A stretch of 64,000 nt of DNA. It comes from Escherichia coli (GTDB lineage: Bacteria; Pseudomonadota; Gammaproteobacteria; Enterobacterales; Enterobacteriaceae). The stretch is taken from assembly GCF_030384885.1 (NCBI RefSeq), contig NZ_CP128613.1; one strand, given 5' to 3'. Positions 1-28,014 of the stretch are shown in pieces. Both the position numbers and the translations under genes were made by a program. The notes beneath the pieces are model-generated. The model saw only the letters and a program-made list of their open reading frames with translations. It was not told the DNA's origin and did not search any database. Numbering within the stretch: position 1 is the first letter of the stretch; every line of letters starts with the position of its first letter.

Positions 1-1261
1 CGAACTGGCTGCATACATGCCGGTTTCCGGTTCGTTTGCCACTTACGGTCAGAACTATGTTGAAGAAGGCTTTGGCTTTGCGCTGGGCTGGAACTACTGG
101 TACAACTGGGCTGTGACTATTGCCGTTGACCTGGTTGCTGCGCAGCTGGTTATGAGCTGGTGGTTCCCGGATACACCCGGTTGGATCTGGAGTGCGCTGT
201 TCCTCGGCGTTATCTTCCTGCTGAACTACATTTCGGTCCGTGGCTTTGGTGAAGCAGAATACTGGTTCTCACTGATCAAGGTTACGACGGTTATTGTCTT
301 TATTGTTGTCGGCGTGCTGATGATTATCGGTATCTTCAAAGGCGCACAGCCTGCGGGCTGGAGCAACTGGACAATCGGCGAAGCACCGTTTGCTGGTGGT
401 TTTGCGGCAATGATCGGCGTGGCAATGATTGTCGGCTTCTCTTTCCAGGGTACCGAGCTGATCGGTATTGCTGCAGGCGAGTCCGAAGATCCGGCGAAAA
501 ACATTCCACGCGCGGTACGTCAGGTGTTCTGGCGAATCCTGTTGTTCTATGTGTTCGCGATCCTGATCATCAGCCTGATTATTCCGTACACCGATCCGAG
601 CCTGCTGCGTAATGATGTGAAAGACATTAGCGTTAGCCCGTTCACCCTGGTATTCCAACACGCGGGTCTGCTCTCTGCGGCGGCGGTGATGAACGCTGTT
701 ATTCTGACGGCGGTGCTGTCAGCGGGTAACTCCGGTATGTATGCGTCTACTCGTATGTTGTACACCCTGGCGTGTGACGGTAAAGCGCCGCGCATTTTCG
801 CTAAATTGTCGCGTGGTGGCGTGCCGCGTAACGCGCTGTATGCGACGACGGTGATTGCCGGTCTGTGCTTCCTGACCTCGATGTTTGGTAACCAGACGGT
901 ATACCTGTGGTTGCTGAACACCTCTGGTATGACAGGCTTTATTGCCTGGCTGGGGATTGCGATTAGCCACTACCGCTTCCGTCGCGGTTACGTATTGCAG
1001 GGACACGACATTAACGATCTGCCGTACCGTTCAGGCTTCTTCCCACTGGGGCCGATCTTCGCATTCATTCTGTGTCTGATTATTACTTTGGGCCAGAACT
1101 ACGAAGCGTTCCTGAAAGACACCATTGACTGGGGCGGCGTAGCGGCAACATATATTGGTATCCCGCTGTTCCTGATTATCTGGTTCGGATACAAGCTGAT
1201 TAAAGGAACTCACTTCGTACGCTACAGCGAAATGAAGTTCCCGCAGAACGATAAGAAATAA
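1..1261 (+). CDS. lysP: Lysine-specific permease, C-terminal ~420 aa; 5' end lies upstream of the window
   Basis: Reading frame is open from the window start (frame of pos 2) into ORF 17..1261; multi-TM amino acid permease sequence matching my recollection of LysP; conserved position upstream of cirA. Confidence 0.85.
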   Translation, partial: ELAAYMPVSGSFATYGQNYVEEGFGFALGWNYWYNWAVTIAVDLVAAQLVMSWWFPDTPGWIWSALFLGVIFLLNYISVRGFGEAEYWFSLIKVTTVIVFIVVGVLMIIGIFKGAQPAGWSNWTIGEAPFAGGFAAMIGVAMIVGFSFQGTELIGIAAGESEDPAKNIPRAVRQVFWRILLFYVFAILIISLIIPYTDPSLLRNDVKDISVSPFTLVFQHAGLLSAAAVMNAVILTAVLSAGNSGMYASTRMLYTLACDGKAPRIFAKLSRGGVPRNALYATTVIAGLCFLTSMFGNQTVYLWLLNTSGMTGFIAWLGIAISHYRFRRGYVLQGHDINDLPYRSGFFPLGPIFAFILCLIITLGQNYEAFLKDTIDWGGVAATYIGIPLFLIIWFGYKLIKGTHFVRYSEMKFPQNDKK

Positions 1262-1281
1262 GTTTCCTCCCTTCCTTGCTA

Positions 1282-1308
1282 AGCCCTCTCAACCGAGAGG
1301 GCTTTTTC
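1282..1308 (+). terminator. Rho-independent terminator of lysP
   Basis: GC-rich hairpin agccctctc-aacc-gagagggct followed by TTTTT directly after the lysP stop. Confidence 0.7.
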
Positions 1309-1357
1309 AATTCTATTTCCCTGACAAATCATGCGGATATAAATTTTAACATTTGGA

Positions 1358-1386
1358 TTGATAATTGTTATCGTTTGCATTATCGT
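1358..1386 (+). promoter_or_regulatory. Fur box(es) in cirA promoter
   Basis: tgataattgttatcgtttgcattatcgtta resembles the Fur consensus GATAATGATAATCATTATC; cirA is a classical Fur-repressed gene. Confidence 0.6.
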
Positions 1387-1553
1387 TACGCCGAAATCAA
1401 AAAAGGCTGACAAATCAGGGGCTGTTCCGGCTTTCTGGGATGATCACCTGCATACAAATAAGTCCACCGCGATGCTGCCGTACGCAAGGGGACGTGAAGA
1501 AGATGTGAGCGATAACCCATTTTATTTTCGTAGTTACCTCATGGAGATATGGA

Positions 1554-3533
1554 ATGTTTAGGTTGAACCCCTTCGTACGGGTCGGGCTGTGTTTGTCCGC
1601 TATTTCTTGTGCATGGCCTGTGTTAGCGGTCGATGATGATGGCGAAACGATGGTTGTCACCGCATCTTCCGTTGAGCAAAACCTTAAAGATGCACCCGCC
1701 AGTATCAGCGTCATTACCCAGGAAGACCTGCAGCGAAAACCGGTACAGAATCTGAAGGATGTCCTCAAAGAAGTGCCTGGCGTACAACTGACGAACGAAG
1801 GGGATAACCGTAAGGGCGTTAGTATTCGTGGTCTGGACAGCAGCTACACCCTGATTCTCGTCGACGGTAAACGCGTTAACTCCCGCAATGCCGTCTTCCG
1901 CCACAATGATTTCGATCTGAACTGGATCCCGGTCGATTCCATCGAACGTATTGAAGTGGTCCGTGGCCCGATGTCGTCGCTGTACGGTTCCGATGCGCTC
2001 GGCGGTGTCGTCAACATCATCACCAAGAAGATCGGTCAGAAATGGGCAGGCACAGTAACTGTTGACACCACCATTCAGGAACATCGCGATCGCGGTGATA
2101 CCTATAACGGTCAGTTCTTTACCAGCGGACCATTAATTGACGGCGTGCTGGGAATGAAAGCTTACGGCAGCCTGGCAAAACGTGAAAAGGATGACCCACA
2201 AAACTCAACGACCACCGATACCGGAGAAACGCCGCGTATTGAAGGATTCTCCAGCCGCGACGGCAATGTGGAATTTGCCTGGACACCGAATCAAAATCAC
2301 GATTTTACTGCCGGATACGGTTTTGACCGTCAGGATCGTGATTCCGACTCGCTGGACAAAAACCGCCTGGAACGTCAGAACTACTCCGTCAGCCATAATG
2401 GGCGTTGGGATTACGGCACCAGCGAACTGAAATACTACGGTGAGAAAGTCGAAAACAAAAACCCTGGCAACAGCAGCCCGATAACTTCCGAAAGCAATAC
2501 GGTCGACGGCAAATACACGTTGCCGTTGACGGCGATTAATCAGTTTCTCACGGTTGGCGGTGAATGGCGTCACGACAAACTTAGCGATGCGGTGAACCTG
2601 ACCGGGGGAAGCAGCTCCAAAACGTCTGCCAGCCAGTACGCGCTGTTTGTGGAAGATGAATGGCGGATCTTCGAGCCGCTGGCGCTGACGACCGGCGTAC
2701 GTATGGACGATCATGAAACCTACGGTGAACACTGGAGTCCTCGTGCCTACCTGGTTTATAACGCCACCGACACCGTAACGGTGAAAGGGGGCTGGGCGAC
2801 GGCATTTAAAGCGCCTTCTCTGTTGCAACTTAGCCCTGACTGGACGAGCAATTCCTGCCGTGGCGCATGCAAGATTGTGGGTAGCCCGGATCTGAAACCT
2901 GAAACCAGCGAAAGTTGGGAGCTGGGGCTTTACTACATGGGTGAAGACGGCTGGCTGGAAGGGGTGGAGTCCAGCGTGACCGTTTTCCGTAACGATGTGA
3001 AAGATCGCATCAGCATCAGCCGTACGTCTGACGTCAATGCTGCACCGGGCTACCAAAACTTTGTCGGTTTTACAGCGGACGGTGTGCCAGTATTCAGCTA
3101 CTACAACGTTAACAAAGCACGTATTCAGGGCGTGGAAACCGAACTGAAAATTCCGTTCAACGATGAATGGAAACTGTCGATCAACTACACCTACAACGAT
3201 GGTCGTGATGTCAGCAACGGCGAAAACAAACCGTTGTCCGATCTGCCGTTCCATACCGCTAACGGTACGCTGGACTGGAAACCGCTGGCGCTGGAAGACT
3301 GGTCATTCTATGTTTCTGGTCACTATACCGGGCAGAAACGCGCCGACAGCGCGACGGCTAAAACTCCGGGCGGTTATACCATCTGGAATACCGGCGCGGC
3401 CTGGCAGGTGACCAAAGACGTCAAACTGCGTGCGGGTGTGCTGAACCTTGGCGACAAGGATCTCAGTCGTGACGACTACAGCTATAACGAAGACGGACGT
3501 CGTTACTTTATGGCAGTGGATTATCGCTTCTGA
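1554..3533 (+). CDS. cirA: TonB-dependent catecholate siderophore / colicin I receptor
   Basis: 659-aa ORF; N-terminal signal peptide, TonB box region (ETMVVTA) and C-terminal ...AVDYRF beta-barrel terminus; matches recalled CirA sequence. Confidence 0.95.
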
Positions 3534-3540
3534 TGCGAAG

Positions 3541-3567
3541 ATGCCCGGCGTCGATCCCGCCGGGCAT
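3541..3567. terminator. Hairpin between convergent cirA and transporter gene (probable bidirectional terminator)
   Basis: Inverted repeat atgcccggcg-tcgatc-cgccgggcat between two convergent stop codons. Confidence 0.5.
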
Positions 3568-3591
3568 AATTCCAGAAATTCGCTTCTGGCT

Positions 3592-4914
3592 TTATAACCG
3601 ATGAAATTTTGCCAGTAAGGCCAGTGAAAATGTTGTCAGCAAAATGGTAATGACTGCGTAAATATACACTCCTGACCATTCCCAACTGTTTTTCACCATA
3701 ATAACTGGAAGCCCTGCCATTGCCGCGCCTAAATAACTAAACAAGCCCCTGAATCCAGTAATGGAACCTGCCGCATCTTTATGCGTAACATCAAGACACC
3801 CGACAGCGAATAACATATGCGGTCCATACAATGCAAACCCCATGATTGTAAACAGAATAGCCGTTAATGTGTAGGAGACGTCCTGCACCAGCGGTACGAG
3901 AACGATGCAAATACATAAAGCGATGGCAAAGATTAATCCGGTCATCCAGCGGTTACTTTTAAACATGAAATCGGACAAGTACCCCGCCAGTAATCCCCCA
4001 GCAAGTCCACCTGCTTCAAACCAGGATATAATGGAGTTCGCTTTAATCAGGCTCCAGTTATGAACCTGAGAATAATAAATTTGTGGCCAGTCATTGAGGA
4101 TGGTGCGTGCAATATAGACCGACATATCCCCGAGGATAATGAGCCAAACTAATGGGTTGGTAAGAATATATTTAACGAATATTTGCCAAAAACTGAGATC
4201 AACCGGACTTGCTTTAACTTGTGCAAGTTCTGTCGGGTCGTTGCGCCACTTACCGACGTTAGGCAAACCGAGCGTGCCGGGACGATCTTTTATCGTAAAC
4301 AAGGCAACAATCCCCATAATCAGTGAGATTACACCCGGAACATAAAAGCCCATCTTCCAGCTGCCACTAAAAGCAATAGCAAAGCTTGTCAGGAGAGGCG
4401 CAAGACTACCGCCAATATTATGCGCAGCTTCAACAACTGCCCACCAGCGTCCGCGTTCATTTTTCGAGAACCACGAGGCCATAATTTTTGCCATTGGCGG
4501 AAAACTGGTACCCTGGAGAATAGCATTAAGGCTATACAGGATATAGAACGCAGCAACGCTGTCTGAAAAACCGAAAAGAATGTTAACAATACCGACGCCA
4601 ATAAGTACGGGGCCAGTCATCGCTCGTGGGTTAATTTTATCGACTAACATGCCACCTACAAACTTCATGGAGCCATAAAGAATGTAAAAGACCGACGACA
4701 TGATAGCGAAATCTTGTGCGGTTAATGACGTATCCGTTAACATCGCTGGCATGGCCGCAGAGAAATTCTTGCGGGTTAAGTAAAATACGGCATAAGAGAT
4801 AAATACAGAGGTGATGATTTCAATGCGAAATTTTTTATAAGTATGATCAACTTCTTCTTTTGGTTTGACCACCGGTTGGTCGGCCTGGCTGAAAATAAAT
4901 TTTTTCAAACTCAT
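3592..4914 (-). CDS. MFS transporter of the organophosphate:Pi antiporter family (UhpT/GlpT/PgtP-like)
   Basis: 440-aa 12-TM protein; segments such as WQIFVKYILTNPLVWL align to recalled UhpT (WQIFVEYVLKNKVIWL); AT-rich, part of inserted island. Confidence 0.75.
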   Translation of the reverse strand: MSLKKFIFSQADQPVVKPKEEVDHTYKKFRIEIITSVFISYAVFYLTRKNFSAAMPAMLTDTSLTAQDFAIMSSVFYILYGSMKFVGGMLVDKINPRAMTGPVLIGVGIVNILFGFSDSVAAFYILYSLNAILQGTSFPPMAKIMASWFSKNERGRWWAVVEAAHNIGGSLAPLLTSFAIAFSGSWKMGFYVPGVISLIMGIVALFTIKDRPGTLGLPNVGKWRNDPTELAQVKASPVDLSFWQIFVKYILTNPLVWLIILGDMSVYIARTILNDWPQIYYSQVHNWSLIKANSIISWFEAGGLAGGLLAGYLSDFMFKSNRWMTGLIFAIALCICIVLVPLVQDVSYTLTAILFTIMGFALYGPHMLFAVGCLDVTHKDAAGSITGFRGLFSYLGAAMAGLPVIMVKNSWEWSGVYIYAVITILLTTFSLALLAKFHRL

Positions 4915-4946
4915 TGTGAGTTTCCTTTTCTGTGAACCTTATGGCG

Positions 4947-5834
4947 CTATAATTTTTCTTCTATAAAAAAGAGAAGCGACTCGAAACCATTAAAATTAAT
5001 CTGGTCAGCAATTTTTTCCCGGGTTTTAGGTTTTGCTTTCCATGCCACGCCATTTCCGGCATGCAAAAGCATAGGAATATCATTGGCACCATCTCCACAG
5101 GCAATGATGTTTTCACGGCAGATAGCTAACTCTGTCGCTAAATTTATCAGGGTTTGCTTTTTCTTTTCTGCATTCATAATAGGTAAGGTAATTGTATCAG
5201 TTAACAGATCTTCCTTAATGCGCACAGAGTTAGAAAATGCAAAATCAAGTTGATATTTTTCCTTCAATCGCTCAGTAAAAATATCCAAACCTCCAGATAT
5301 AATTGCCGTCTTGAATCCTTTTTCTTTTAGTATGGGAAGAATAGTTTCAAGACCTGGTGAAAGAGTCATCTGTTCACAAACTTGATGCAATATATCTTTA
5401 TGCGTTCCTTTAAGCATGGCAATTCGCCGGGTAAAACTGGTATCAAAATCGATTTTCCCTTCCATCGCTTCACGGGTCAGTGCGGTGATTTTTTCAGAGA
5501 TGCCGAGTCTACGGGCTATTTCATCGACACCTTCTTCTTCAACAAAGGTGGAATCCATATCAAAGGCAATAATTCCCTGATCCGGTAAGACCCTGGGTTT
5601 ACGGAAAAAATCAAACTGATGATTATCAGCACGGTGACGTAAACCAGCATAAAAAGCAGGGTTGGTAACATCATCTGGTAATACTAGCTTTAGATACTCT
5701 TTATTTATTTGCCCACTGTAATTCGTTGTTAGCGAAAACACCGAGGGGGAAATCTTTAAATGTTGCAGATAATCTTCCAGACATTTTTGGGTGATGTCGA
5801 TGCCTGTTGGCGACAAGAAATAAATAATCGTCAT
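4947..5834 (-). CDS. HAD-family phosphatase, phosphoserine phosphatase (SerB)-like
   Basis: 295 aa; HAD motif I FDMDST, motif III K...GG, motif IV GDGANDIPML as in SerB. Confidence 0.75.
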   Translation of the reverse strand: MTIIYFLSPTGIDITQKCLEDYLQHLKISPSVFSLTTNYSGQINKEYLKLVLPDDVTNPAFYAGLRHRADNHQFDFFRKPRVLPDQGIIAFDMDSTFVEEEGVDEIARRLGISEKITALTREAMEGKIDFDTSFTRRIAMLKGTHKDILHQVCEQMTLSPGLETILPILKEKGFKTAIISGGLDIFTERLKEKYQLDFAFSNSVRIKEDLLTDTITLPIMNAEKKKQTLINLATELAICRENIIACGDGANDIPMLLHAGNGVAWKAKPKTREKIADQINFNGFESLLFFIEEKL

Positions 5835-5927
5835 TTACCGCTCCTTTTTATCTGCAATGATTATAATAAGATTTCATAGAGGCTGATGTATCTGACAATC
5901 ACAGTTGTGAATGTTAAATAAAAGATA

Positions 5928-5991
5928 AAAAAGTACTTTTTTTGATACTTTGAAATAATAAGATACTAAAAGTACCATTTTTGATATCTTT
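5928..5991. promoter_or_regulatory. Pair of ~23-bp imperfect direct repeats in divergent promoter region of the island (candidate operator)
   Basis: aaaagtactttttttgatacttt (5928-5950) and aaaagtaccatttttgatatcttt (5968-5991) in the AT-rich gap between divergent operons. Confidence 0.4.
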
Positions 5992-6044
5992 ACCAGGATA
6001 TAAAGAATAACTATTTTTCAACGTTGAAGGAATCATTTAAAAAT

Positions 6045-7397
6045 ATGGAAAGCTGCATAGATATATTCAAGATAGTTATTGGTCCATCCAGTTCCCGCAC
6101 AGTCGGGCCAATGCGTGCGGCTTATAATTTTGTGTCACAATTGAAACAGCAAGAAATGTTACCTTTGTTGCGGAAAATTGATGTCGAACTTTATGGTGCG
6201 CTGTCATTAAGCCGCAAGTGCCATAATGTTGATGTGGCGATTTATCTCGGTTTGCAAGGACACTTACCTGACAGCGTTGACATTCGCATGGAAATGTCCG
6301 CCATCAGGCGTGCAGAAACTGAGGCGACGCTGGAAGTTATGCCTGGTGTCAACGTCAGTGTATCCATTCTTTCTAATCTACAAGCGCATCCGGGGCACCC
6401 TTATGCGATGACATTTCGTGCCAGAGATGACTGGTTTACACTTTATGAAGAAACCTGGTTTTCTATCGGCGACGGTCAAGTGCTAAAAGCAGGAGAGGCG
6501 ATTATTCCTCCATCAGTCACTCCACATCCTTTTGAATTCCAGAACGCAAACGAATTATTAAAACTTTGTCAGCAAAACGGATTATCTGTCGCGGCATTAA
6601 TGATGAAAAACGAACTGCACTGCCAGACAGCAGCTTTTTTGCATGACGATCTTCATAAAAAATGGGAAGTAATGAAGGATGCGGTTTATCGCGGGATGCA
6701 TACAGAAGGATTACTTCCAGGTCCGTTTCAGGTTAACCGTCGTGCCTGTGCTTTATATAAATCGTTGCAGTCAAAGGGTTTTTCCAATGACTTCCTGACT
6801 GCGCTCAATTGGGTCAATACTTTTGCCATTGCGGTGAGCGAAGAAAATGCTGCGGGTGGACGTGTCGTGACAGCACCCACCAACGGCGCGAGCGGTATTA
6901 TCCCGGCTGTACTGTGCTGGTATGATAAATTCATTCACGAGCTTGATACATACTCCGTTACCCGCTTTTTACTGACCGCTGGTGCCATCGCCATTCTGTT
7001 CAAAAAAAATGCCTCTATTCTGGGTTCTGAAGTTGGATGTCAGGGGGAAATAGGTGTTGCCAGTTCAATGGCGGCAGCAGGATTAGCAGAACTTATGGGC
7101 GGGTCAGTGGCTCAGGTACTTAGCGCGGCAGAAATTGCGATGGAGCATCATTTAGGTTTGACCTGTGATCCAGTTGGCGGGCAGGTACAAATTCCTTGTA
7201 TTGAACGAAATGCTATTTCAGCTGTGAAAGCTATCAACGCAACGACGATGGCGTTGAGTCGCATAAGCGAGCCGTGCATTACGCTGGATGAGATAATTTC
7301 CGCGATGTATGAAACCGGAAAGGATATGAGCGCTAAATACCGTGAAACTTATCATGGCTGTCTGAGCAAATTGCAGCCAAGAAAAAAGGATGCGTAA
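6045..7397 (+). CDS. L-serine dehydratase (Fe-S, SdaA/SdaB family) homolog
   Basis: N-terminus [23 protein letters not shown] parallels SdaA [23 protein letters not shown]; ORF track start 6024 is a TTG, ATG at 6045 preferred. Confidence 0.8.
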
Positions 7398-7398
7398 G

Positions 7399-7788
7399 AT
7401 GAAATATAATACGATGAATAACAACGAAATTATTTTATCACTGTGCGCTCGCATTAAAGAAACGCGTATCTCATTATCATTGACCCAACAGCAGTTAGCC
7501 GAGCGTGCATTGGTGGGCATAGCAACGGTCAAGCGGATTGAAAAGGGGGGAAGTTTAAATCTTGATACTCTCATTTCTCTTCTGCGCGCGCTGAATAAAT
7601 TGCAAAATCTCGATGCCATATTGTTCGAAGCAGAAATGCGTAATTTCAACGAAAATAGTTCCAGCGGCGAAGGGGCAGGGCGACTACAGGTACGCCAGCA
7701 ACTGACAGATTTAAACCAGAAGTCTCCAGCCCCGCACGCAGATGACCATAATTTTAGTACGGCGCTGGAAAATACCCTCTGCTGGTGA
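7399..7788 (+). CDS. XRE-family helix-turn-helix transcriptional regulator
   Basis: HTH segment LSLTQQQLAERALVGIATVKRIEKG; start ambiguous (7390/7399/7414); overlaps end of upstream gene, stop abuts yeiG stop. Confidence 0.65.
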   Translation: MKYNTMNNNEIILSLCARIKETRISLSLTQQQLAERALVGIATVKRIEKGGSLNLDTLISLLRALNKLQNLDAILFEAEMRNFNENSSSGEGAGRLQVRQQLTDLNQKSPAPHADDHNFSTALENTLCW

Positions 7789-8658
<870 letters not shown>

Positions 8659-8882
8659 TCATCATACCGTTTATTCAATGTGCTGTGAGTAACTTTCACT
8701 TCCGTATATACATAACGATGTTTTAACATCTGCTGATGAAAGGCAGCGGCAATTACAATAATTATCGCTGTGAATACTGGATTATGTGCGCCGCCTCACG
8801 CACAATAATCAGGCTGTAAATCAGCTTAATAACTTTGCCCCCACGCAGGGCGGAGGCGTCACACCTGCAGGAGAAATCATAA

Positions 8883-9551
8883 ATGCCATCACTCAGTAAA
8901 GAAGCGGCCCTGGTTCATGAAGCGTTAGTTGCGCGAGGACTGGAAACACCGCTGCGCCCGCCCGTGCATGAAATGGATAACGAAACGCGCAAAAGCCTTA
9001 TTGCTGGTCATATGACCGAAATCATGCAGCTGCTGAATCTCGACCTGGCTGATGACAGTTTGATGGAAACGCCGCATCGCATCGCTAAAATGTATGTCGA
9101 TGAAATTTTCTCCGGTCTGGATTACGCCAATTTCCCGAAAATCACCCTCATTGAAAACAAAATGAAGGTCGATGAAATGGTTACCGTGCGCGATATCACC
9201 CTGACCAGTACCTGTGAACACCATTTTGTTACCATCGATGGCAAAGCGACGGTGGCTTATATCCCGAAAGATTCGGTGATCGGTCTGTCAAAAATTAACC
9301 GTATCGTGCAGTTCTTTGCCCAGCGTCCGCAGGTGCAGGAACGTCTGACGCAGCAAATTCTCATTGCGCTACAAACGCTGCTGGGCACCAATAACGTGGC
9401 TGTCTCTATCGATGCGGTACATTACTGCGTGAAGGCGCGTGGCATCCGCGATGCAACCAGTGCCACGACAACGACCTCTCTTGGTGGATTGTTCAAATCC
9501 AGTCAGAATACGCGCCACGAGTTTCTGCGCGCTGTGCGTCATCACAACTGA
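8883..9551 (+). CDS. folE: GTP cyclohydrolase I
   Basis: 222 aa, matches recalled FolE sequence. Confidence 0.95.
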
Positions 9552-9567
9552 TTAAAAGGCAGGAACC

Positions 9568-10725
9568 ATGGAGCGCAACGTCACGCTCGATTTTGTTCGC
9601 GGCGTCGCCATTCTGGGGATCCTGCTATTAAACATCAGCGCCTTTGGGTTACCAAAGGCGGCTTATCTCAATCCCGCCTGGTACGGCGCTATTACGCCGC
9701 AGGATGCATGGACCTGGGCATTACTCGATCTCATCGGTCAGGTGAAATTCCTCACGCTTTTTGCGTTGCTGTTTGGTGCTGGCCTGCAAATGTTGCTACC
9801 CCGTGGCAAACGCTGGATCCAGTCGCGGTTAACACTGTTAGTCTTGTTGGGCTTTATTCACGGTTTATTGTTCTGGGACGGCGATATTCTGTTGGCTTAC
9901 GGGCTGGTGGGCTTAATCTGTTGGCGGCTGGTGCGCGATGCGCCATCGGTAAAAAGCCTGTTTAATACCGGCGTCATGCTTTATCTGGTGGGGCTTGGCG
10001 TTTTGCTATTGTTGGGGTTGATTTCAGACAGTCAGACCAGCCGCGCCTGGACGCCGGATGCATCGGCTATTTTGTATGAAAAATACTGGAAGCTTCACGG
10101 CGGCGTTGAAGCGATCAGTAATCGTGCCGATGGTGTTGGCAACAGTTTACTGGCACTGGGCGCACAGTATGGCTGGCAACTGGCAGGGATGATGCTAATT
10201 GGCGCGGCGCTGATGCGCAGTGGCTGGCTGAAAGGACAGTTTAGCTTGCGCCATTATCGGCGTACCGGTTTTGTGCTGGTGGCGATTGGGGTGATCATTA
10301 ACCTTCCAGCGATCGCCCTGCAATGGCGGCTGGACTGGGCATATCGCTGGTGCGCCTTCTTACTTCAGATGCCGCGGGAACTGAGTGCGCCGTTTCAGGC
10401 GGTTGGCTATGCGTCGCTGTTTTATGGTTTCTGGCCGCAATTGAGCCGCTTTAAGCTGGTGCTCGCGATCGCCTGCGTCGGACGGATGGCGCTGACCAAC
10501 TATCTATTGCAAACGCTGATTTGTACCACGCTTTTTTATCACCTCAGTTTGTTTATGCAGTTTGACCGTCTGGAATTGCTGGCGTTTGTTATTCCGGTAT
10601 GGCTGGCGAATATTCTCTTCTCTGTTATCTGGCTGCGTTACTTCCGTCAGGGGCCGGTGGAATGGCTCTGGCGTCAGTTAACTTTACGTGCTGCCGGACC
10701 TGCATTATCTAAAACATCAAGATAA
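9568..10725 (+). CDS. yeiB: DUF418-family inner membrane protein
   Basis: 385-aa polytopic membrane protein in conserved position after folE. Confidence 0.85.
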   Translation: MERNVTLDFVRGVAILGILLLNISAFGLPKAAYLNPAWYGAITPQDAWTWALLDLIGQVKFLTLFALLFGAGLQMLLPRGKRWIQSRLTLLVLLGFIHGLLFWDGDILLAYGLVGLICWRLVRDAPSVKSLFNTGVMLYLVGLGVLLLLGLISDSQTSRAWTPDASAILYEKYWKLHGGVEAISNRADGVGNSLLALGAQYGWQLAGMMLIGAALMRSGWLKGQFSLRHYRRTGFVLVAIGVIINLPAIALQWRLDWAYRWCAFLLQMPRELSAPFQAVGYASLFYGFWPQLSRFKLVLAIACVGRMALTNYLLQTLICTTLFYHLSLFMQFDRLELLAFVIPVWLANILFSVIWLRYFRQGPVEWLWRQLTLRAAGPALSKTSR

Positions 10726-10755
10726 CGATCTGGATCACATTCATTAACAAAATGG

Positions 10756-10790
10756 TTGTAACCGTTTCCATTGCTGTGACTCGATTCACG
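10756..10790 (+). promoter_or_regulatory. galS promoter: gal-type operator-like palindrome plus CRP site
   Basis: ttgtaaccgtttccat resembles GalR/GalS operator GTGTAAACGATTCCAC; tgtgactcgattcacg (10775-10790) fits CRP consensus TGTGA-N6-TCACA. Confidence 0.5.
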
Positions 10791-10866
10791 AAGTCCTGAA
10801 TTCAGTGCTGACAAAATAGCCGCCAGCAAGCAGGCATTTACTGCAATCTCATAACAGGTAGTGAAT

Positions 10867-11907
10867 ATGATCACCATTCGTGATGTAGCGCGTCAGGCTG
10901 GCGTCTCTGTGGCAACGGTTTCCCGGGTGCTCAATAACAGCACGCTGGTCAGTGCCGACACGCGTGAAGCAGTAATGAAAGCAGTGAGCGAGCTGGATTA
11001 TCGGCCAAACGCCAATGCCCAGGCGCTGGCAACTCAGGTTAGCGATACCATTGGCGTGGTGGTAATGGACGTTTCTGATGCGTTTTTCGGCGCGCTGGTA
11101 AAAGCGGTGGATCTCGTCGCCCAGCAGCACCAGAAATATGTGCTAATAGGTAATAGCTATCATGAAGCGGAAAAAGAGCGTCATGCCATTGAGGTGTTAA
11201 TTCGTCAGCGTTGTAACGCGTTGATTGTTCATTCAAAAGCGTTAAGCGATGATGAATTAGCGCAGTTTATGGATAACATTCCCGGTATGGTGTTAATCAA
11301 CCGCGTTGTGCCAGGTTACGCCCATCGTTGCGTTTGCCTGGATAATCTCAGTGGTGCCCGAATGGCCACGCGCATGTTGCTCAATAATGGTCATCAACGT
11401 ATTGGTTATCTTTCTTCCAGCCACGGTATTGAAGATGATGCCATGCGCAAAGCAGGCTGGATGAGTGCGTTGAAAGAGCAGGATATTATTCCGTCGGAAA
11501 GCTGGATTGGCACTGGCACCCCGGACATGCCAGGCGGTGAGGCGGCGATGGTTGAACTGCTGGGGCGCAATCTACAACTTACCGCTGTATTTGCATACAA
11601 CGACAATATGGCCGCTGGCGCACTGACGGCATTAAAAGATAATGGTATTGCGATTCCGTTACATCTCTCAATCATCGGTTTCGATGATATTCCCATCGCT
11701 CGTTACACCGACCCACAATTAACGACCGTGCGTTATCCCATTGCTTCGATGGCAAAATTAGCTACCGAACTGGCCTTACAAGGGGCAGCAGGCAACATTG
11801 ATCCTCACGCCAGCCACTGTTTTATGCCGACGTTAGTGCGTCGCCATTCTGTCGCAACGCGCCAGAATGCGGCAGCGATCACTAACTCAACAAATCAGTC
11901 GATGTAA
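10867..11907 (+). CDS. galS: LacI-family repressor of mgl/gal regulon
   Basis: N-terminal [26 protein letters not shown]; matches recalled GalS; track start 10861 is 2 codons upstream. Confidence 0.9.
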
Positions 11908-11919
11908 CCGCTTTCAATC

Positions 11920-11935
11920 TGTGAGTGATTTCACA
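11920..11935 (+). promoter_or_regulatory. CRP-binding site upstream of mglB
   Basis: tgtgagtgatttcaca is a perfect TGTGA-N6-TCACA; followed by tgtaac-containing operator-like sequence (11961-11990). Confidence 0.5.
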
Positions 11936-12186
11936 GTATATTAACAATGCGATAGCTATGATTGCACCGTTTTAACGCTGTAACCTGTATGTAACAGTGA
12001 ATCATCACTTTCACCGAGGTAATAGCGTCATAACAACAATTAAAGCCGTTTTCTGGAGCGTTACCGGGCATGGAAGAACGAATTTTAAAAAGTGAGCTTC
12101 GGCGTTCAGTAACACTTCATTAACTCTACTGCCCCGCCGAGCATTTATCTCAAGCACTACCCTGCATAAGAAAAACCGGAGATACC

Positions 12187-22002: not shown

Positions 22003-22914
22003 CTAATTCTGCTGTAAAAAGTGCAGAAACTGACTTAAAGCATAAGAAGGCGTTTCGTTATTACGCCAAAACACACCGACGCTGCCTTTCTGTTCAATCT
22101 TTGGCAGGTTGAGGATTGCCAGTTGCCCCTGGCTGGCATAACGTTGCGCCAGGCGTAATGACAAAATAGAGATCATATTGCTGCTTTGTAACAGGTTGGT
22201 ACTGACGTTCATCGATGCCGACTCAATCGTGTTTTCTGGCAGCATCACGCCGTGGTCTACCAGCGCATTATCAATGCTGATGCGGATGGGGGTACCTGTC
22301 GGCCAGACTATCCACCGCCAGTTAGCAAGATCATTCCAGCTGAGGGTGGCGTATTTCGCCAGTGGATGCTCAGGACGGGCGACAAAGCATACCGGCTCGG
22401 TGTAGAGCACGCGATAATTCAGCGGCAGCTGCAACGCGCGACCGCCAATTCGCCCAACCACCACATCGACAGAACCTGCCAACAGATCTTGCAGCAATGG
22501 GGTCATCACCTTCTCTTCGATATTCAGGTGTAGAGTTGGCATCTCCTTGAGCAAATGCAAAATCGCCTGGGATACGCAGTCAGTGGCGACGGGAGAACAG
22601 CCAATTTTCAGACTGCCGACCAGTCCACCTTGTTTAAAGCGAGCCAGTTCATATTGCGATCTTTCCATGTCATTGATTAACCGTTGGGCATGTTGCAATA
22701 ACAATTTGCCGCCTTCGGTCGGACGAAGCCCTTTGCTGTGCCGCTCAAAAAGTGTGAGTCCGATCTCATCTTCCAGTTGTGACAACCATTTCGAAAGCGC
22801 GGGTTGGGTGATATTCATCATCCGCGCGACATGGGTCAGATTACCCTGTTCACCCAGCGCCACCAGCATTTGCAGGTGATGTAGTTTTAGTTTTTGCGCC
22901 CAGTTCGCCATTTG
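22003..22914 (-). CDS. mhbR: LysR-family regulator of the gentisate cluster (MhbR-like)
   Basis: N-terminal HTH LTHVARMMNITQPALSKWL, divergent from the catabolic operon; start uncertain (22914 or 22959). Confidence 0.75.
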   Translation of the reverse strand, partial: QMANWAQKLKLHHLQMLVALGEQGNLTHVARMMNITQPALSKWLSQLEDEIGLTLFERHSKGLRPTEGGKLLLQHAQRLINDMERSQYELARFKQGGLVGSLKIGCSPVATDCVSQAILHLLKEMPTLHLNIEEKVMTPLLQDLLAGSVDVVVGRIGGRALQLPLNYRVLYTEPVCFVARPEHPLAKYATLSWNDLANWRWIVWPTGTPIRISIDNALVDHGVMLPENTIESASMNVSTNLLQSSNMISILSLRLAQRYASQGQLAILNLPKIEQKGSVGVFWRNNETPSYALSQFLHFLQQN

Positions 22915-23037
22915 CCATAACCTCCAGGTTATCTCTCTGCCCGAAATGCCATTGTACATCTCATCTCTTTAATCACATTATCGCAACATATACAAAACAA
23001 AAGAAACATCTACCTTACCTGCACTGAGGCATTTACT

Positions 23038-24396
23038 ATGACTCAACGACGTGATTTACAAGCACTTATCGATGCCGCTCCGGTCGGCAAGATGCAGTGG
23101 CGCGTTATCATCTGCTGTTTTCTGGTGGTAATGCTCGATGGTTTTGACACCGCGGCTATCGGCTTTATCGCCCCTGATATTCGCACTCACTGGCAGCTCA
23201 CCGCAGGCGATCTCGCCCCGCTTTTTGGTGCGGGTCTGCTGGGATTAACCGCAGGCGCACTGCTTTGTGGCCCGTTGTCCGATCGCTTTGGTCGCAAGCG
23301 GGTGATTGAGCTGTGCGTCTTTTTGTTTGGCGCGTTAAGCCTCGCCTCGGCTTTCTCACCGGATCTGCAAACGCTGGTCTTCCTGCGCTTTCTCACCGGC
23401 CTGGGTCTGGGCGGCGCGATGCCGAACACCATCACCATGACCTCGGAGTATCTGCCTGCCCGCCGCCGCGGCGCGCTGGTGACGCTGATGTTTTGCGGCT
23501 TTACGCTGGGTTCGGCGTTTGGCGGGATTGTCAGTGCGCAGCTGGTGCCGGTGATTGGCTGGCACGGCATTCTGGTGTTGGGGGGCGTGTTACCGCTGAT
23601 GCTGTTTGTCGCACTGCTGGTAGTTCTGCCGGAATCGCCACGCTGGCAGGTGCGCCGCCAGCTACCGCAGGCGGTGATTGCGAAAACCGTCAGCGCCATC
23701 ACCCGCGAGCGTTATGTCGATACCCACTTTTATCTCATTGAATCAGCCTCCGTTACAAAAGGCAGCATTCGTCAACTGTTTATGGGACGTCAGTTACCCA
23801 TTACGTTGATGTTGTGGGTAGTGTTCTTTATGAGCCTGCTGATTATTTACCTGCTCTCAAGCTGGATGCCGACGCTACTGAACCATCGCGGCATAGACCT
23901 GCAACACGCGTCCTGGGTCACCGCCGCGTTCCAGATTGGCGGTACGTTGGGCGCGCTGGCGCTGGGCGTGCTGATGGATAAGTTCAATCCTTTCCGCGTG
24001 CTGGCGCTGAGCTATGCCATAGGCGCTATATGCATCGTGATGATTGGCTTAAGCCAGGATGGATTATGGCTGATGGCGCTGGCGATTTTCGGCACCGGCA
24101 TTGGCATTAGCGGATCTCAGGTGGGGCTGAATGCGCTGACCGCAACACTTTATCCAACACAAAGTCGCGCCACGGGCGTGAGCTGGTCAAATGCTATCGG
24201 CCGCTGCGGCGCGATTGTCGGCTCGCTTTCTGGCGGCCTGATGATGGCGATGAATTTCTCTTTCGACACCCTGTTTTTCATTATCGCTGTGCCCGCGGCG
24301 ATCAGTGCGGTGATGTTAAGCCTGCTGATCACCGTGGTTCGCCAGTCGACCTCTGTCCCTGACTCACTGCCTCGCGCAGGCGTTGTGAACGAATAA
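23038..24396 (+). CDS. mhbT: MFS aromatic acid:H+ symporter (3-hydroxybenzoate/gentisate transporter-like)
   Basis: 452 aa, 12 TM, MFS motifs ([11 protein letters not shown]). Confidence 0.75.
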
Positions 24397-24407
24397 GGAG
24401 CATCCTA

Positions 24408-25436
24408 ATGACTGATAACAATCAAAAAAGCCGCGAGCAATTTTATCAGCATATTTCCGGGCAAAACCTGACCCCGCTGTGGGAGTCACTGCACCACCTG
24501 GTGCCGAAAACGCCCAACGCCAACTGTGCGCCAGCGTACTGGAATTATCAGGAGATCCGCCCGCTGCTGCTGGAGAGCGGCAGCCTGATTGGCGCGAAAG
24601 AAGCTGTGCGTCGTGTGCTGGTACTGGAAAACCCGGCGCTGCGCGGGCAGTCTTCCATTACCGCGACTTTATATGCCGGTTTGCAACTGATCATGCCGGG
24701 CGAAGTGGCACCGAGTCATCGTCATAATCAGTCGGCGCTGCGTTTTATTGTTGAAGGCAAAGGGGCATTTACCGCCGTTGATGGCGAACGCACGCCAATG
24801 AATGAGGGCGATTTTATCCTGACCCCACAATGGCGCTGGCACGATCACGGTAACCCTGGCGACGAACCGGTTATCTGGCTCGATGGACTGGATCTGCCAT
24901 TAGTGAACACTCTGGGCTGCGGTTTTGCCGAAGATTACCCGGAAGAGCAACAACCGGTAACGCGTAAAGAGGGCGATTATCTGCCACGTTACGCTGCCAA
25001 TATGTTGCCGCTGCGCCATCAGACCGGGAACTCCTCACCCATCTTTAACTACCGTTATGACCGTAGCCGCGAAGTGCTGCACGATTTAACCCGCCTGGGC
25101 GATGCCGATGAGTGGGATGGCTACAAAATGCGCTACGTCAACCCGGTCACCGGCGGCTATCCGATGCCGTCGATGGGCGCCTTCCTGCAACTGCTACCGA
25201 AAGGGTTCGCCTCCCGCGTGGCGCGTACCACTGACAGCACTATCTACCATGTAGTGGAAGGTAGCGGACAAGTCACCATCGGCAATGAAATCTTCACCTT
25301 TAGTGCAAAAGATATCTTTGTGGTGCCGACCTGGCACGGCGTGTCATTCCAGATTACGCAAGATACCGTTTTATTCAGTTTTTCGGACAGACCGGTACAA
25401 GAAGCCCTGGGGCTGTTCCGCGAAGCGCGTTATTAA
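24408..25436 (+). CDS. mhbD: Gentisate 1,2-dioxygenase (bicupin)
   Basis: 342 aa; cupin His motif [12 protein letters not shown]; size and order as in gentisate clusters. Confidence 0.8.
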
Positions 25437-25451
25437 TTTGGGAGAGAGAAA

Positions 25452-26153
25452 ATGACTCAATATGTATTCGAACCACAAGCGCCCGTTACCGTACCGGTTG
25501 TTGGCAGTGATGAACAATTCCCCGTGCGCCGCGTTTACTGTGTCGGGCGTAACTATGCCGCCCACGCCCGCGAAATGGGCTTTGATCCGGATCGTGAACC
25601 CCCCTTCTTCTTCTGCAAACCAGCAGATGCCGTTGTTCCGGTCGCCGCTGGCGAAACGCTGGCGCTGCCGTATCCGGCGCAGACCGATAACTATCATTAC
25701 GAAATTGAACTGGTGGTGGCGATTGGTAAAAAGGGCAGCGATATCCCACTGGAAAAGGCCCATGAATATGTCTGGGGTTATGCCACAGGCCTTGATATGA
25801 CTCGCCGTGACCGTCAAATGGAAATGCGTCAGATGGGCCGCCCGTGGGAAATCGGCAAAGCATTTGATCTCTCGGCCCCCATCGCACCGCTGCACAAAGC
25901 CAGCGAAACTGGCGGTATTGATAACGCACCTATCTGGTTACAGGTTAACGGCGAAGATCATCAGCGCAGCGATATTCGTCATCTCATCTGGTCAGTGAAT
26001 GAAACCATCAGCTACCTGTCAGGCTTCTTTGAACTGCAACCGGGCGATCTAATCTTTACCGGTACGCCAGAAGGGGTGGGCCCAGTAGTCAAAGGTGATG
26101 TGATCACGGGCAACGTCGAGGGCTTAACCCCTATCGCGGTGAAGATTGTCTGA
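25452..26153 (+). CDS. mhbH: Fumarylpyruvate hydrolase (FAH family)
   Basis: 233-aa FAH-fold protein following the dioxygenase. Confidence 0.75.
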
Positions 26154-26161
26154 GGTGCATG

Positions 26162-26806
26162 ATGAAGCTGTACAGTTTTTTTAATAGTTCAGCATCGTAC
26201 CGGGTACGCATTGCGCTGGCGCTGAAAGGCATTAATTACCAGACCGAAGGGGTGAATATCCGTATTGGTCAGCAAAATGAACTGGCCTATCGGCGGATGA
26301 ATCCTGTCGGGCTGGTGCCGACGCTGCTGACTGACGAGGGCGAGTCACTCGGTCAGTCGCTGGCGATTATTGACTGGCTGGATCGTCACTACCCGCAAGT
26401 TCCGCTGGTGCCGCAGGAAGAACCGGCCCGCAATAAGGTGCTGGAAATTGTCTATGCCATCGCTTGTGATATTCATCCATTGAATAACCTGCGCGTGCTG
26501 CGCTATCTGACCGAAGAGCTGAACGTCAGTGAAGAAGAGAAAAAACGCTGGTATGCGCACTGGATCCAGCAAGGGTTAAGCGCGGTGGAACAGCTACTGC
26601 GCCAGAGCCAGTCGGGGCAATTTTGTGTGGGTGAGACGCCGACGCTGGCAGACTGCTGCCTTGTTCCGCAGTGGGCGAACGCGCTACGTATGAACTGCGA
26701 TCTGAGTGGATATCCGCGCTGCAAAGCGGTGTACGACGCCTGCACACAACTGCCAGCGTTCATTGCCGCAGCGCCAGAAAATCAACAAGATAAAATTTCA
26801 GCCTGA
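26162..26806 (+). CDS. mhbI: Maleylpyruvate isomerase (GST zeta-class)
   Basis: 214-aa GST-like protein. Confidence 0.75.
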   Translation: MKLYSFFNSSASYRVRIALALKGINYQTEGVNIRIGQQNELAYRRMNPVGLVPTLLTDEGESLGQSLAIIDWLDRHYPQVPLVPQEEPARNKVLEIVYAIACDIHPLNNLRVLRYLTEELNVSEEEKKRWYAHWIQQGLSAVEQLLRQSQSGQFCVGETPTLADCCLVPQWANALRMNCDLSGYPRCKAVYDACTQLPAFIAAAPENQQDKISA

Positions 26807-26820
26807 CCAGGAGAACCATA

Positions 26821-28014
26821 ATGACTAAAGTGACACGCGCAGTAATTGTGGGAGGCGGGATCGGCGGTGCGGCAACTGCGCTGTCACTGGCCCGCCAGGG
26901 GATCAAAGTGGTGCTGCTGGAAAAGGCGCATGAGATCGGTGAGATCGGCGCAGGTATCCAGTTGGGGCCAAATGCGTTTTCGGCGTTGGATAGTCTTGGT
27001 GTTGGCGAAATCGCCCGCCAACGTGCGGTATTCACCGATCACATCACCATGATGGACGCGGTGAACGCCGAAGAAGTGGTGCGTATTGAAACCGGGCAGG
27101 CCTTTCGTGACCATTTCGGCGGCCCTTACGCGGTGATCCACCGCGTTGATATTCATGCCTCGGTGTGGGAAGCGGTACTGACGCATCCGAACGTGGAGTA
27201 TCACACCTCTACGAATGTCGTGGATATTCGTGAGACGGAAGACGATGTCACCGTTTTCGACGATCGAGGTAATAGCTGGAGCGGCGATATTTTGATTGGA
27301 TGTGATGGCGTGAAGTCAGTGGTGCGCCAGAGCTTATTAGGCGATGCGCCGCGCGTCACCGGTCATGTGGTCTACCGTGCGGTTATCGATTGTGCGGATA
27401 TGCCGGAAGATTTACGTATTAATGCGCCGGTATTGTGGGCGGGGCCGCACTGTCACCTGGTGCATTATCCTTTGCGCGGCGGCAAGCAGTATAACCTGGT
27501 GGTGACATTCCACAGCCGCCACCAGGAAGAGTGGGGCGTGAAGGATGGCAGTAAAGAGGAAGTGCTTTCCTATTTTGAAGGCATTCACCCGCGTCCTCGC
27601 CAGATGCTGGATAAACCGACGTCATGGCGACGCTGGTCAACGGCCGATCGTGAACCGGTAGGGAAATGGGGGACTAACCGCATTACGCTGGTGGGCGATG
27701 CGGCCCATCCGGTGGCGCAGTATATGGCACAAGGTGCCTGTATGGCGCTGGAAGATGCAGTAACGCTGGGTAAGGCGCTGGCGCAGTGTGAGGGTGATGC
27801 GGCGCAAGCTTTTGCGCTGTATGAGTCGGTACGTATTCCGCGTACCGCGCGCATCGTCTGGTCGACCCGTGAAATGGGGCGGGTTTATCACGCCGCAGGG
27901 GTAGAACGTCAGGTACGTAACCTGCTGTGGAAAGGGAAATCGCAGGCAGAGTTTTATCGCGGCATGGAGTGGCTGTACGGCTGGAAAGAAGATAACTGTC
28001 TGCAACCACGCTGA
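26821..28014 (+). CDS. mhbM: FAD-dependent aromatic monooxygenase, 3-hydroxybenzoate 6-hydroxylase / salicylate hydroxylase family
   Basis: N-terminal VIVGGGIGGAATALSL dinucleotide fold, DG and GD FAD motifs. Confidence 0.75.
   Translation: MTKVTRAVIVGGGIGGAATALSLARQGIKVVLLEKAHEIGEIGAGIQLGPNAFSALDSLGVGEIARQRAVFTDHITMMDAVNAEEVVRIETGQAFRDHFGGPYAVIHRVDIHASVWEAVLTHPNVEYHTSTNVVDIRETEDDVTVFDDRGNSWSGDILIGCDGVKSVVRQSLLGDAPRVTGHVVYRAVIDCADMPEDLRINAPVLWAGPHCHLVHYPLRGGKQYNLVVTFHSRHQEEWGVKDGSKEEVLSYFEGIHPRPRQMLDKPTSWRRWSTADREPVGKWGTNRITLVGDAAHPVAQYMAQGACMALEDAVTLGKALAQCEGDAAQAFALYESVRIPRTARIVWSTREMGRVYHAAGVERQVRNLLWKGKSQAEFYRGMEWLYGWKEDNCLQPR

Follow-up and report, generated by a model that had tools for sequence, protein, structure and literature searches.

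How does a compact block of four AT-rich genes come to lie between cirA and yeiG in some chromosomes of Escherichia coli, and which cellular function could it exert there? The question is raised by a window of 64,000 nt, the whole stretch of DNA analysed here (Escherichia coli, NCBI RefSeq contig NZ_CP128613.1, assembly GCF_030384885.1), in which four intact genes occupy the gap between the convergent ends of cirA and yeiG. The gene layout was taken from the list of open reading frames (ORFs) and from the annotation in RefSeq of an identical record, NZ_CP027579.1, which belongs to the human stool isolate E. coli 2013C-4282. A preliminary description of this DNA had assigned a SerB-like phosphatase and an organophosphate transporter to the minus strand and an Fe-S serine dehydratase homologue and an XRE regulator to the plus strand, and these identities and strands are borne out by the ORF list, the annotation and the profile scores. 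It had further proposed import of a phosphorylated substrate, most simply phosphoserine or a related phospho-amino acid, with dephosphorylation and deamination to pyruvate. This is still the best reading, favoured by phosphoserine-binding residues in the phosphatase, a charge pair in the transporter, gene linkage and purifying selection, while it stays a prediction from sequence. The module appears to be the orthologue of the locus STM2195-STM2198 of Salmonella enterica.

In the proposed pathway, a transporter of the organophosphate:phosphate antiporter (OPA) family would take up O-phospho-L-serine from outside, or a phospho-amino acid closely resembling it, in return for inorganic phosphate (Pi) of the cytoplasm. 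The dedicated SerB-type phosphatase would hydrolyse phosphoserine to L-serine and Pi, the latter sustaining further exchange, and the Fe-S dehydratase would turn serine into pyruvate and ammonium, which would supply carbon and nitrogen without a build-up of serine. The XRE protein, co-transcribed with the dehydratase, would bind two dyad operators and most likely repress both operons until an inducer is present. We infer which compound is carried and by what mode of exchange, what the enzymes catalyse, and in which direction and to which signal the regulator acts. Phosphoserine import, dephosphorylation and deamination to pyruvate under XRE control is regarded as the most likely mechanism, with a confidence somewhat above even, and the wider claim, import and catabolism of some phosphorylated hydroxy-amino acid, is held to be highly probable.

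The transporter is, judged from its profile and structural matches, a member of the OPA family. The best-scoring NCBIfam models are UhpC (426 bits, cut-off 564), followed by the PgtP subfamily (343 bits, cut-off 408) and GlpT (279 bits, cut-off 633), before the PgtP equivalog (217 bits, cut-off 750) and UhpT (198 bits, cut-off 497). Since the protein scores below every curated cut-off, it falls into no characterised OPA specificity group. Over residues 7-426, the GlpT structure 1PW4 gives an alignment of 236 bits, while SLC37A4 scores 176 bits, and the orthologues carry Pfam MFS_1. The columns of GlpT R45, K80, H165 and R269, of which R45 and R269 are the two essential pore arginines, are filled by R48, K84, H165 and R270 of the transporter. 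In addition, the GlpT-N162 column, a helical turn away from H165, is occupied by E162 and the UhpT-K391 column by R389, and the residue at the UhpT-D388 column is Thr. Among 104 aligned representatives this E162/R389 pair is unique: none of the 99 other representatives combines an acidic with a basic residue at the two columns; Asp at the first column and Arg at the second each occur in a single representative. The Glu/Arg pair is present in every clade member of the alignment with at least 64% identity, the degenerate P0013 excepted, while a 53%-identical relative, P0014, is without the Glu and contains Lys at the K391 column. The added anion-cation pair would match a zwitterionic phospho-amino acid, which carries an ammonium and a carboxylate group, and the transporter is proposed as a candidate phosphoserine:Pi antiporter. 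A search of 1.84 billion cluster representatives showed the clade to be essentially one cluster at 50% identity with one full-length representative, the next full-length relatives sharing at most 38% identity. The ratio of nonsynonymous to synonymous divergence (dN/dS) of the transporter gene is 0.02-0.05. A sensor role as for UhpC is unlikely: UhpAB-type partners are missing, and UhpC-like proteins have Val and Asn where the clade has Arg and Glu.

The phosphatase passes the SerB equivalog model TIGR00338 (207.6 bits, cut-off 144.15) and fails the full-length enterobacterial SerB model NF008350 (201 versus 413 bits), which matches only residues 80-288. It aligns over its full length (396 bits) with PDB entry 4EZE, the Salmonella orthologue, which is labelled only as 'haloacid dehalogenase-like hydrolase'. 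An alignment (A5) was built from the module phosphatase, E. coli SerB, the phosphoserine phosphatase (PSP) of M. jannaschii and phosphatases adjoining related transporters. All four HAD motifs (I-IV: DxDxT, S, K, DxxxD) are kept, and D92, D94, S95, T96, E101, M124, F130, R137, S180, K225, D248, N251 and D252 are invariant, the corresponding residues of M. jannaschii PSP including D11, D13, E20, M43, F49, R56, S99, K144, D167, N170 and D171. We take E20 to contact the amino group, R56 the carboxylate and M43 and F49 the side of the serine moiety, following the PSP structures 1F5S and 1L7P. Compared with E. coli SerB, identity is 38% in the catalytic core and 16% in the N-terminal domain. The Salmonella orthologue is 64% identical overall, 73% in the conserved core and 41% in the fast-evolving N-terminal domain, so that the low identity between genera is mainly due to the divergence of these 85 residues; dN/dS is 0.15-0.39. 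On sequence grounds the protein counts as a true phosphoserine phosphatase that differs from the housekeeping SerB, and its position in an operon with the transporter implies a catabolic rather than a biosynthetic role.

The third component, a homologue of the type 2 [4Fe-4S] L-serine dehydratases, passes the model for single-chain L-serine ammonia-lyases, TIGR00720 (547.4 bits, cut-off 345.1), and stays below the cut-offs of the SdaA/SdaB-type equivalog models. The L-serine dehydratase of Legionella pneumophila (LpLSD; 4RQO) aligns over the full length at 367 bits. Within an alignment (A3) of 123 dehydratase sequences, comprising 18 clade members and 105 canonical homologues, C332, C374, C385 and H60 are invariant and correspond to LpLSD C343, C385, C396 and H61. 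In LpLSD, His61 is described as the catalytic base, and Cys458 of the C-terminal tail acts as fourth Fe ligand of the cluster and as intrinsic inhibitor (PMC12647591). The module dehydratase forms a separate clade with approximately 52% identity to the E. coli paralogues and 20 fixed clade-specific residues. The GPSSSHT loop reads GPSSSRT in all 18 clade members, whereas the His is present in all 105 canonical homologues. The equivalent of LpLSD Gly58, three residues before the catalytic His, is Arg in the clade, and the C-terminal GGLAIKVxC tail of the canonical dehydratases is absent. Together, the Arg substitutions and the loss of the tail may indicate altered regulation or a more anionic substrate. 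The dN/dS of the dehydratase gene is 0.11-0.13.

The linkage of these genes extends beyond the standard module, as the transporter clade adjoins a SerB-type phosphatase in three gene arrangements. The first is the divergent enterobacterial module; the second is a rearranged operon of HAD phosphatase, MFS transporter and XRE regulator with a convergent dehydratase (L023/L024), the transporter being 71% identical; the third comprises pairs of MFS transporter and HAD phosphatase in Photobacterium lutimaris and in a metagenome contig (L021/L022). The Photobacterium phosphatase is 50% identical to E. coli SerB and 36% to the module phosphatase; being closer to SerB, it shows that two SerB lineages have been paired with one transporter clade. 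The GPSSSRT Arg also occurs in the dehydratase of the rearranged module, and every GPSSSRT-type dehydratase with context examined is clustered with the transporter, the phosphatase and the regulator. The rearranged module of L023 lies on an 8.6-kb contig of GCA_040089445.1, deposited under Salmonella enterica, where phage-like genes (for a tail protein and a lysis protein) and a fragment of an autotransporter flank it. Since this transporter shares only 71% identity with the chromosomal copy of Salmonella, the contig may stem from another organism. A lone transporter with 77-82% identity is encoded in three species of Gallibacterium, Pasteurellaceae of birds (L014, L015, L018; 7001-8320), where it lies between a permease gene and ffh and has a host-like GC content of 37-39%. 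This identity is high for the taxonomic distance and hints at an old exchange between the families.

Several observations weigh against the phosphoserine pathway as it is drawn here. The changes of the dehydratase at the invariant loop His, the second Arg and the lost Cys tail may point to a substrate other than plain L-serine. The transporter occurs without module partners in Gallibacterium, and P0014 adjoins a 2-hydroxyacid dehydrogenase; the linkage of transporter and phosphatase is therefore not universal. The module is also dispensable, since it is absent from 98% of E. coli, interrupted by IS1 in three carriers and frameshifted in two type strains. Furthermore, phosphoserine outside the cell could be hydrolysed by the periplasmic phosphatases of enteric bacteria before it is taken up. 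The argument from the charge pair leans on reports from the Maloney and Wang laboratories that GlpT N162 and UhpT D388 and K391 influence substrate selectivity. Finally, transport, enzyme, growth or expression data on the four genes were not found in the full-text literature searched. None of the Salmonella locus tags was found in the supplement of the Chaudhuri 2013 transposon sequencing (Tn-seq) study, a paper on cell-free phosphoserine mentions none of the relevant enzymes, and a silent single-nucleotide polymorphism in STM14_2710 is an incidental mention.

If phosphoserine is not the substrate, the transporter might carry another anionic organophosphate, such as 2- or 3-phosphoglycerate or phosphoenolpyruvate, which PgtP transports, or phosphothreonine or 4-phosphohydroxythreonine, with the phosphatase and the dehydratase acting on this compound or its product instead of phosphoserine. 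This would agree with the failure of all equivalog cut-offs, with the PgtP subfamily as second-best NCBIfam match and with the altered active-site loops of the dehydratase clade. In the literature on PgtP and UhpT, a basic residue at the UhpT-K391 column is linked with carboxylated substrates, which an uncompensated cation at this position favours, and P0014, encoded beside the 2-hydroxyacid dehydrogenase, has Lys in this column. However, the phosphatase keeps both the Glu for the amino group and the Arg for the carboxylate and exceeds the SerB equivalog threshold, the clade-unique Glu at the N162 column, absent in P0014, suggests a cationic group on the substrate, and two separate SerB lineages are paired with the transporter clade. 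We consider such a substrate unlikely. A more far-reaching idea, to which we assign a small probability, is that the Arg-substituted, tail-less dehydratase clade is not an ordinary L-serine dehydratase but an Fe-S lyase of new specificity whose substrate is more anionic, acting together with the first phospho-amino-acid:phosphate antiporter of the OPA family. Such a lyase may, for example, catalyse the direct beta-elimination of phosphate from O-phosphoserine or the dehydration of another acidic hydroxy-amino acid. Lyase and antiporter together would then make up a so far unnoticed nutrient route for the use of phosphoserine from host or diet by Salmonella, Citrobacter and a minority of E. coli.

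Turning to the control of the proposed phosphoserine pathway, HTH models match residues 18-73 of the regulator and no other model type matches; the orthologues carry Pfam HTH_3. Translation of the regulator is coupled to that of the dehydratase, and the stop codon of the regulator gene abuts that of yeiG; the C-terminus ...LCW is also found in Salmonella, and dN/dS is about 0.09. Phylogenetic footprints in the divergent regulatory region were derived from an alignment (A2) across Escherichia, Salmonella and Citrobacter and are listed with the genes in Table 1. The same alignment shows that the dehydratase start ATG 6045 is kept in all genera compared and that TTG 6024 is not. The two dyad operators are spaced by 39 bp and follow the pattern GTAyy-N-TTTTT-rATAy, which has 2 matches in the 64 kb compared with 0.04 expected and is found again at the equivalent place in related loci; L023 has a GGTATCATTTTTG half-site upstream of its rearranged module. 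Operator 2 overlaps with hexamers at 5950-5978 and 5981-6008 that resemble promoter elements for the operon of dehydratase and regulator. Operators and promoter elements of the divergent region are kept over more than 100 nt. Around the ATCACA box, inspection by eye gave no convincing CRP site of the form TGTGA-N6-TCACA. In Salmonella, STM2195 is annotated as 'putative DNA-binding protein', and transposon insertions in it are less tolerated in Typhimurium than in Typhi (PMC3487940). The greater cost of these insertions in Typhimurium fits a repressor but does not prove it. Two other roles of the XRE gene were rejected: as a type II antitoxin of the HipB/MqsA kind it scores 41 versus a cut-off of 71.65 bits (TIGR03070) and 24 versus 62 bits (TIGR03830) and has no adjacent toxin-like ORF, and as part of a defence system it obtains only a weak generic HTH match from PADLOC.

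Table 1. Genes and regulatory features of the cirA-yeiG interval, in window positions.
Feature	Position	Strand	Basis
cirA	1554-3533	+	ORF list and RefSeq annotation
cirA-transporter stop-to-stop spacer	3534-3591	.	sequence inspection
MFS transporter, OPA family, 440 aa	3592-4914	-	ORF list and RefSeq annotation
SerB-like HAD phosphatase (HAD-IB), 295 aa	4947-5834	-	ORF list and RefSeq annotation
Divergent regulatory region, 210 bp	5835-6044	.	phylogenetic footprints
Phosphatase Shine-Dalgarno GGAG (CTCC)	5841-5844	-	footprint in A2
Palindromic TATAAT, placed to serve the phosphatase-transporter operon	5860-5867		footprint in A2
ATCACA box	5898-5903		footprint in A2
Dyad operator 1, GTACTTTTTTTGATAC	5933-5948		footprint in A2
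Dyad operator 2, GTACCATTTTTGATAT	5972-5987		footprint in A2
Fe-S L-serine ammonia-lyase/dehydratase homologue, 450 aa	6045-7397	+	ORF list and RefSeq annotation
XRE-family HTH regulator, 129 aa	7399-7788	+	ORF list and RefSeq annotation
yeiG	7789-8625	-	ORF list and RefSeq annotation

How widespread the block is, and since when it has resided at this site, bears on whether it is functional at all. Among 5,426 complete E. coli genomes 89 (approximately 1.6%) contain it, always on the chromosome and always at the cirA-yeiG site, and in 85 of these 89 carriers at least 80% of the block is found in one piece. The carriers fall into at least four haplotypes, which differ by 0-5% from the window and by 3-5% from each other. 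IS1 interrupts the block in the three carriers MB53, CFS3246 and strain 35. Many of the listed carriers derive from animals, wastewater or surface water, and several are human stool isolates of the CDC series. A homology and synteny survey, already suggested in the preliminary description, places the module beside yeiG in several genera. The four-gene order abutting yeiG-folE-yeiB-galS is found in Escherichia whittamii, in three subspecies of Salmonella enterica, including arizonae and diarizonae, in at least eight Citrobacter species, in a Scandinavium-like genome and in a further enterobacterium. The neighbour on the far side varies: Escherichia and Salmonella have cirA there, the C. freundii group has another TonB-dependent receptor, and L034 has an AraC/glycosidase cluster. 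The module is thus anchored to yeiG. The receptor of the C. freundii group (L007-L009, L011, L012, L019; approximately 8700-10700) shares about 35% identity with CirA and is encoded on the opposite strand, with lysP beyond it.

Could the module be a decaying or silent remnant in E. coli, its genes intact merely by chance or of little use and silenced on account of their AT-richness, without any role in phosphoserine use and with the dehydratase perhaps acting as a fourth serine deaminase? The tag STM14_2709 presumably denotes a module gene, an assignment that rests only on the order of tags after STM14_2708, which is STM2195. The rarity of the block, which about 98% of E. coli are without, its interruption by IS1 and the frameshifted transporters of C. 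koseri NCTC10786 and S. arizonae CCUG 6322T would fit decay, as would a Tn-seq experiment in which the STM14_2709 mutant grew better under iron restriction (PMC9308263). These arguments are countered by dN/dS values well below 1 for all four genes (0.02-0.39), both within E. coli and between genera, which indicate purifying selection, by the largely undivided block in the great majority of carriers and by the conservation of operators and promoter elements. A remnant is accordingly judged improbable. Regarding the two frameshifts, the transporter of C. koseri is split into ORFs of 274 aa and 173 aa (L017 7001-8324) and that of S. arizonae has a C-terminal frameshift that yields an ORF of 527 aa (L010 7001-8584); sequencing errors are possible in both.

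The history of the site is told by its boundaries and its divergence. As the preliminary description had stated for K-12, cirA and yeiG are adjacent where the block is missing: in block-free genomes their stop codons are 31 bp apart (empty site L002). When the empty site is aligned with the window, both have the same sequence through GATGCCCGGCG and diverge beyond it, which places the left boundary at about 3550/3551 and the carrier-only DNA at approximately 3551-7796. This DNA takes the place of about 23 bp of the empty site and alters the last two codons of yeiG, the protein ending in YLQE* with the block and in YLLK* without it. The spacer behind cirA contains two hairpins, one formed by GCCCGGCG at 3543-3550 and CGCCGGGC at 3558-3565, the other by CCAGAA at 3572-3577 and TTCTGG at 3584-3589. 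A pattern scanner for terminators called neither of the two spacer hairpins, which may nevertheless serve as terminators. For the block, neither the ORF list nor the annotation shows an integrase or transposase, no tRNA gene was found within window positions 1-12000, and no repeats bracket 3551-7796. Plasmid carriage was rejected, as the high-identity 'plasmid' matches carry yeiG/fghA and are chromosomal fragments, and so was carriage by phages, for which phage collections gave only UhpC-like matches of about 40% identity. Several Salmonella 'plasmid' records (L032, NZ_CP022017.1; H91-H94) contain yeiG/fghA and the rest of the module and look like mislabelled chromosomal DNA.

The AT-richness that had been noted from the sequence holds on calculation: the GC content of the block is 42.7% compared with 52.4% and 50.9% in the flanks, the lowest among 599 sliding windows of 4.2 kb over the 64 kb (mean 51.0, standard deviation 2.8), and the GC content at third codon positions (GC3) agrees, with 34-47% for the module genes and 57-64% for the flanking genes. 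This AT-richness is real but lineage-dependent, the Salmonella orthologues being less AT-rich than the copies of the window (GC3 47-65% versus 34-47%). Synonymous divergence (dS) between the window and E. whittamii is 0.29-0.60 for the module genes and 0.35-0.61 for the flanking genes, and between the window and Salmonella both are saturated or nearly so. We therefore do not follow the earlier proposal of a horizontally acquired insertion in E. coli: at least five lineages share the yeiG site, dS equals that of the flanks and mobility signatures are lacking. For the same reasons the block is taken to be an old resident of its yeiG-side position, and the cirA-yeiG junction of K-12 is best read as the derived state, left by a deletion. 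A single deletion event in E. coli is plausible, because the geometry of the empty site is alike in nearly all genomes sampled, and an ancient acquisition from a low-GC donor may have preceded the split of these genera. That the block is instead a recent genomic island from an AT-rich donor, inserted in the cirA-yeiG spacer in the E. coli lineage of the window, is very improbable, since its low GC and GC3, its patchy presence in E. coli and the 77-82% identity of its transporter to that of low-GC Gallibacterium are set against an identical gene orientation towards yeiG in E. whittamii, S. enterica, Citrobacter, the Scandinavium-like genome and another enterobacterium, equal dS of module and flanks at each phylogenetic depth, at least four E. 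coli haplotypes that lie 3-5% apart, and the lack of integrase, tRNA, bracketing repeats and genuine plasmid or phage carriage.

Some neighbouring features of the window deserve mention. Its yeiG allele is unusually divergent, with a dS of 0.42-0.45 to other E. coli, including carriers, and of 0.61 to E. whittamii; lysP, with a dS of about 0.2, and yeiB, with about 0.18, likewise diverge strongly for genes compared within one species. The divergence of these three genes suggests an old or imported haplotype across the region. Owing to an indel of four residues, the cirA product has 659 aa in the window but 663 aa in E. whittamii, in Salmonella and in the other carriers among E. coli. A second cluster that is absent from K-12 lies at 22003-28014 between yohJ and dusC and encodes a LysR regulator, the 3-hydroxybenzoate transporter MhbT, gentisate 1,2-dioxygenase, a fumarylacetoacetate-hydrolase-family protein, maleylacetoacetate isomerase and 3-hydroxybenzoate 6-monooxygenase. 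In the corresponding neighbourhood of Salmonella, STM2178 is listed as 'putative 1,2-dioxygenase' without K-12 orthologue (PMC3487940). The cluster may be another ancestral segment that was lost by K-12.

The gene combination had been thought undescribed. This holds in so far as no functional description was found, but the locus is annotated in Salmonella (STM2195) and the structure of its phosphatase has been deposited as PDB 4EZE, so that the genes themselves are not new. New would probably be the combination of known protein families into an uncharacterised pathway and the specificity of the transporter. If the transporter does carry phosphoserine, phospho-amino acids would be a new substrate class for the OPA family, and a function would be assigned to four linked genes that most often occur in Salmonella and are common in Citrobacter, among them one for a protein with an unexplained structural-genomics structure. 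The polymorphism of the module in E. coli could feed niche differences, for example with regard to phosphoprotein-rich diets or host-cell phosphoserine. The dehydratase clade offers a natural experiment on the GPSSSHT His and the C-terminal Cys tail of Fe-S serine dehydratases. Finally, the locus is a clear case of an AT-rich 'island' relative to K-12 that is actually an ancestral segment lost by most E. coli.

The closest known system is the Salmonella enterica locus STM2195-STM2198 (L003), in which the orthologous module occupies the cirA-yeiG site in the same order and orientation. Its proteins share 92% (transporter), 72% (dehydratase), 64% (phosphatase) and 75% (regulator) identity with those of the window. 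We take STM2196-2198 to be the tags of the Salmonella module genes other than STM2195, and t0657-t0660 to be the Typhi equivalents. STM2195 has been listed without K-12 orthologue (PMC3487940). To judge from clusters of 6,223 and 3,428 sequences, Salmonella has the locus very frequently, and in E. coli it is rare; a search of the full-text literature found no functional study of it. Among transporters, we know of no OPA member that carries a phospho-amino acid, and the papers searched report none. The fold of UhpT, UhpC, GlpT and PgtP (TCDB 2.A.1.4) is shared by the module transporter, in which both phosphate-binding Arg of GlpT are conserved along with its Lys and His; its identity is 39% to UhpC, 25% to UhpT and, judged from the 236-bit alignment, about 30% or less to GlpT. 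Characterised OPA members exchange organophosphate for Pi, and the substrates given in a review of the family are glycerol-3-phosphate, hexose phosphates and phosphoglycerates/phosphoenolpyruvate only (PMC9306846). In contrast to these relatives, the module is without UhpAB or PgtABC sensor genes and contains the XRE regulator instead. Its phosphatase shares the HAD-IB core, the four motifs and the phosphoserine contacts with SerB and M. jannaschii PSP, whereas the N-terminal domain of SerB is unrelated to its own. Similarly, its dehydratase shares the single-chain beta+alpha architecture, the three cluster Cys and the His61 equivalent with SdaA, SdaB, TdcG and LpLSD but is without the GPSSSHT His and the C-terminal Cys tail of these enzymes. 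In overall design the module resembles dsdCXA for D-serine, which joins an importer and a deaminase with a local regulator. A comparable arrangement of a cysteine importer, an Fe-S desulfidase yielding pyruvate and ammonium, and a local regulator is cyuPA (PMC9040844). In contrast to both, the module would import a phosphorylated compound, add a phosphatase and use a phosphate antiporter rather than an amino-acid permease.

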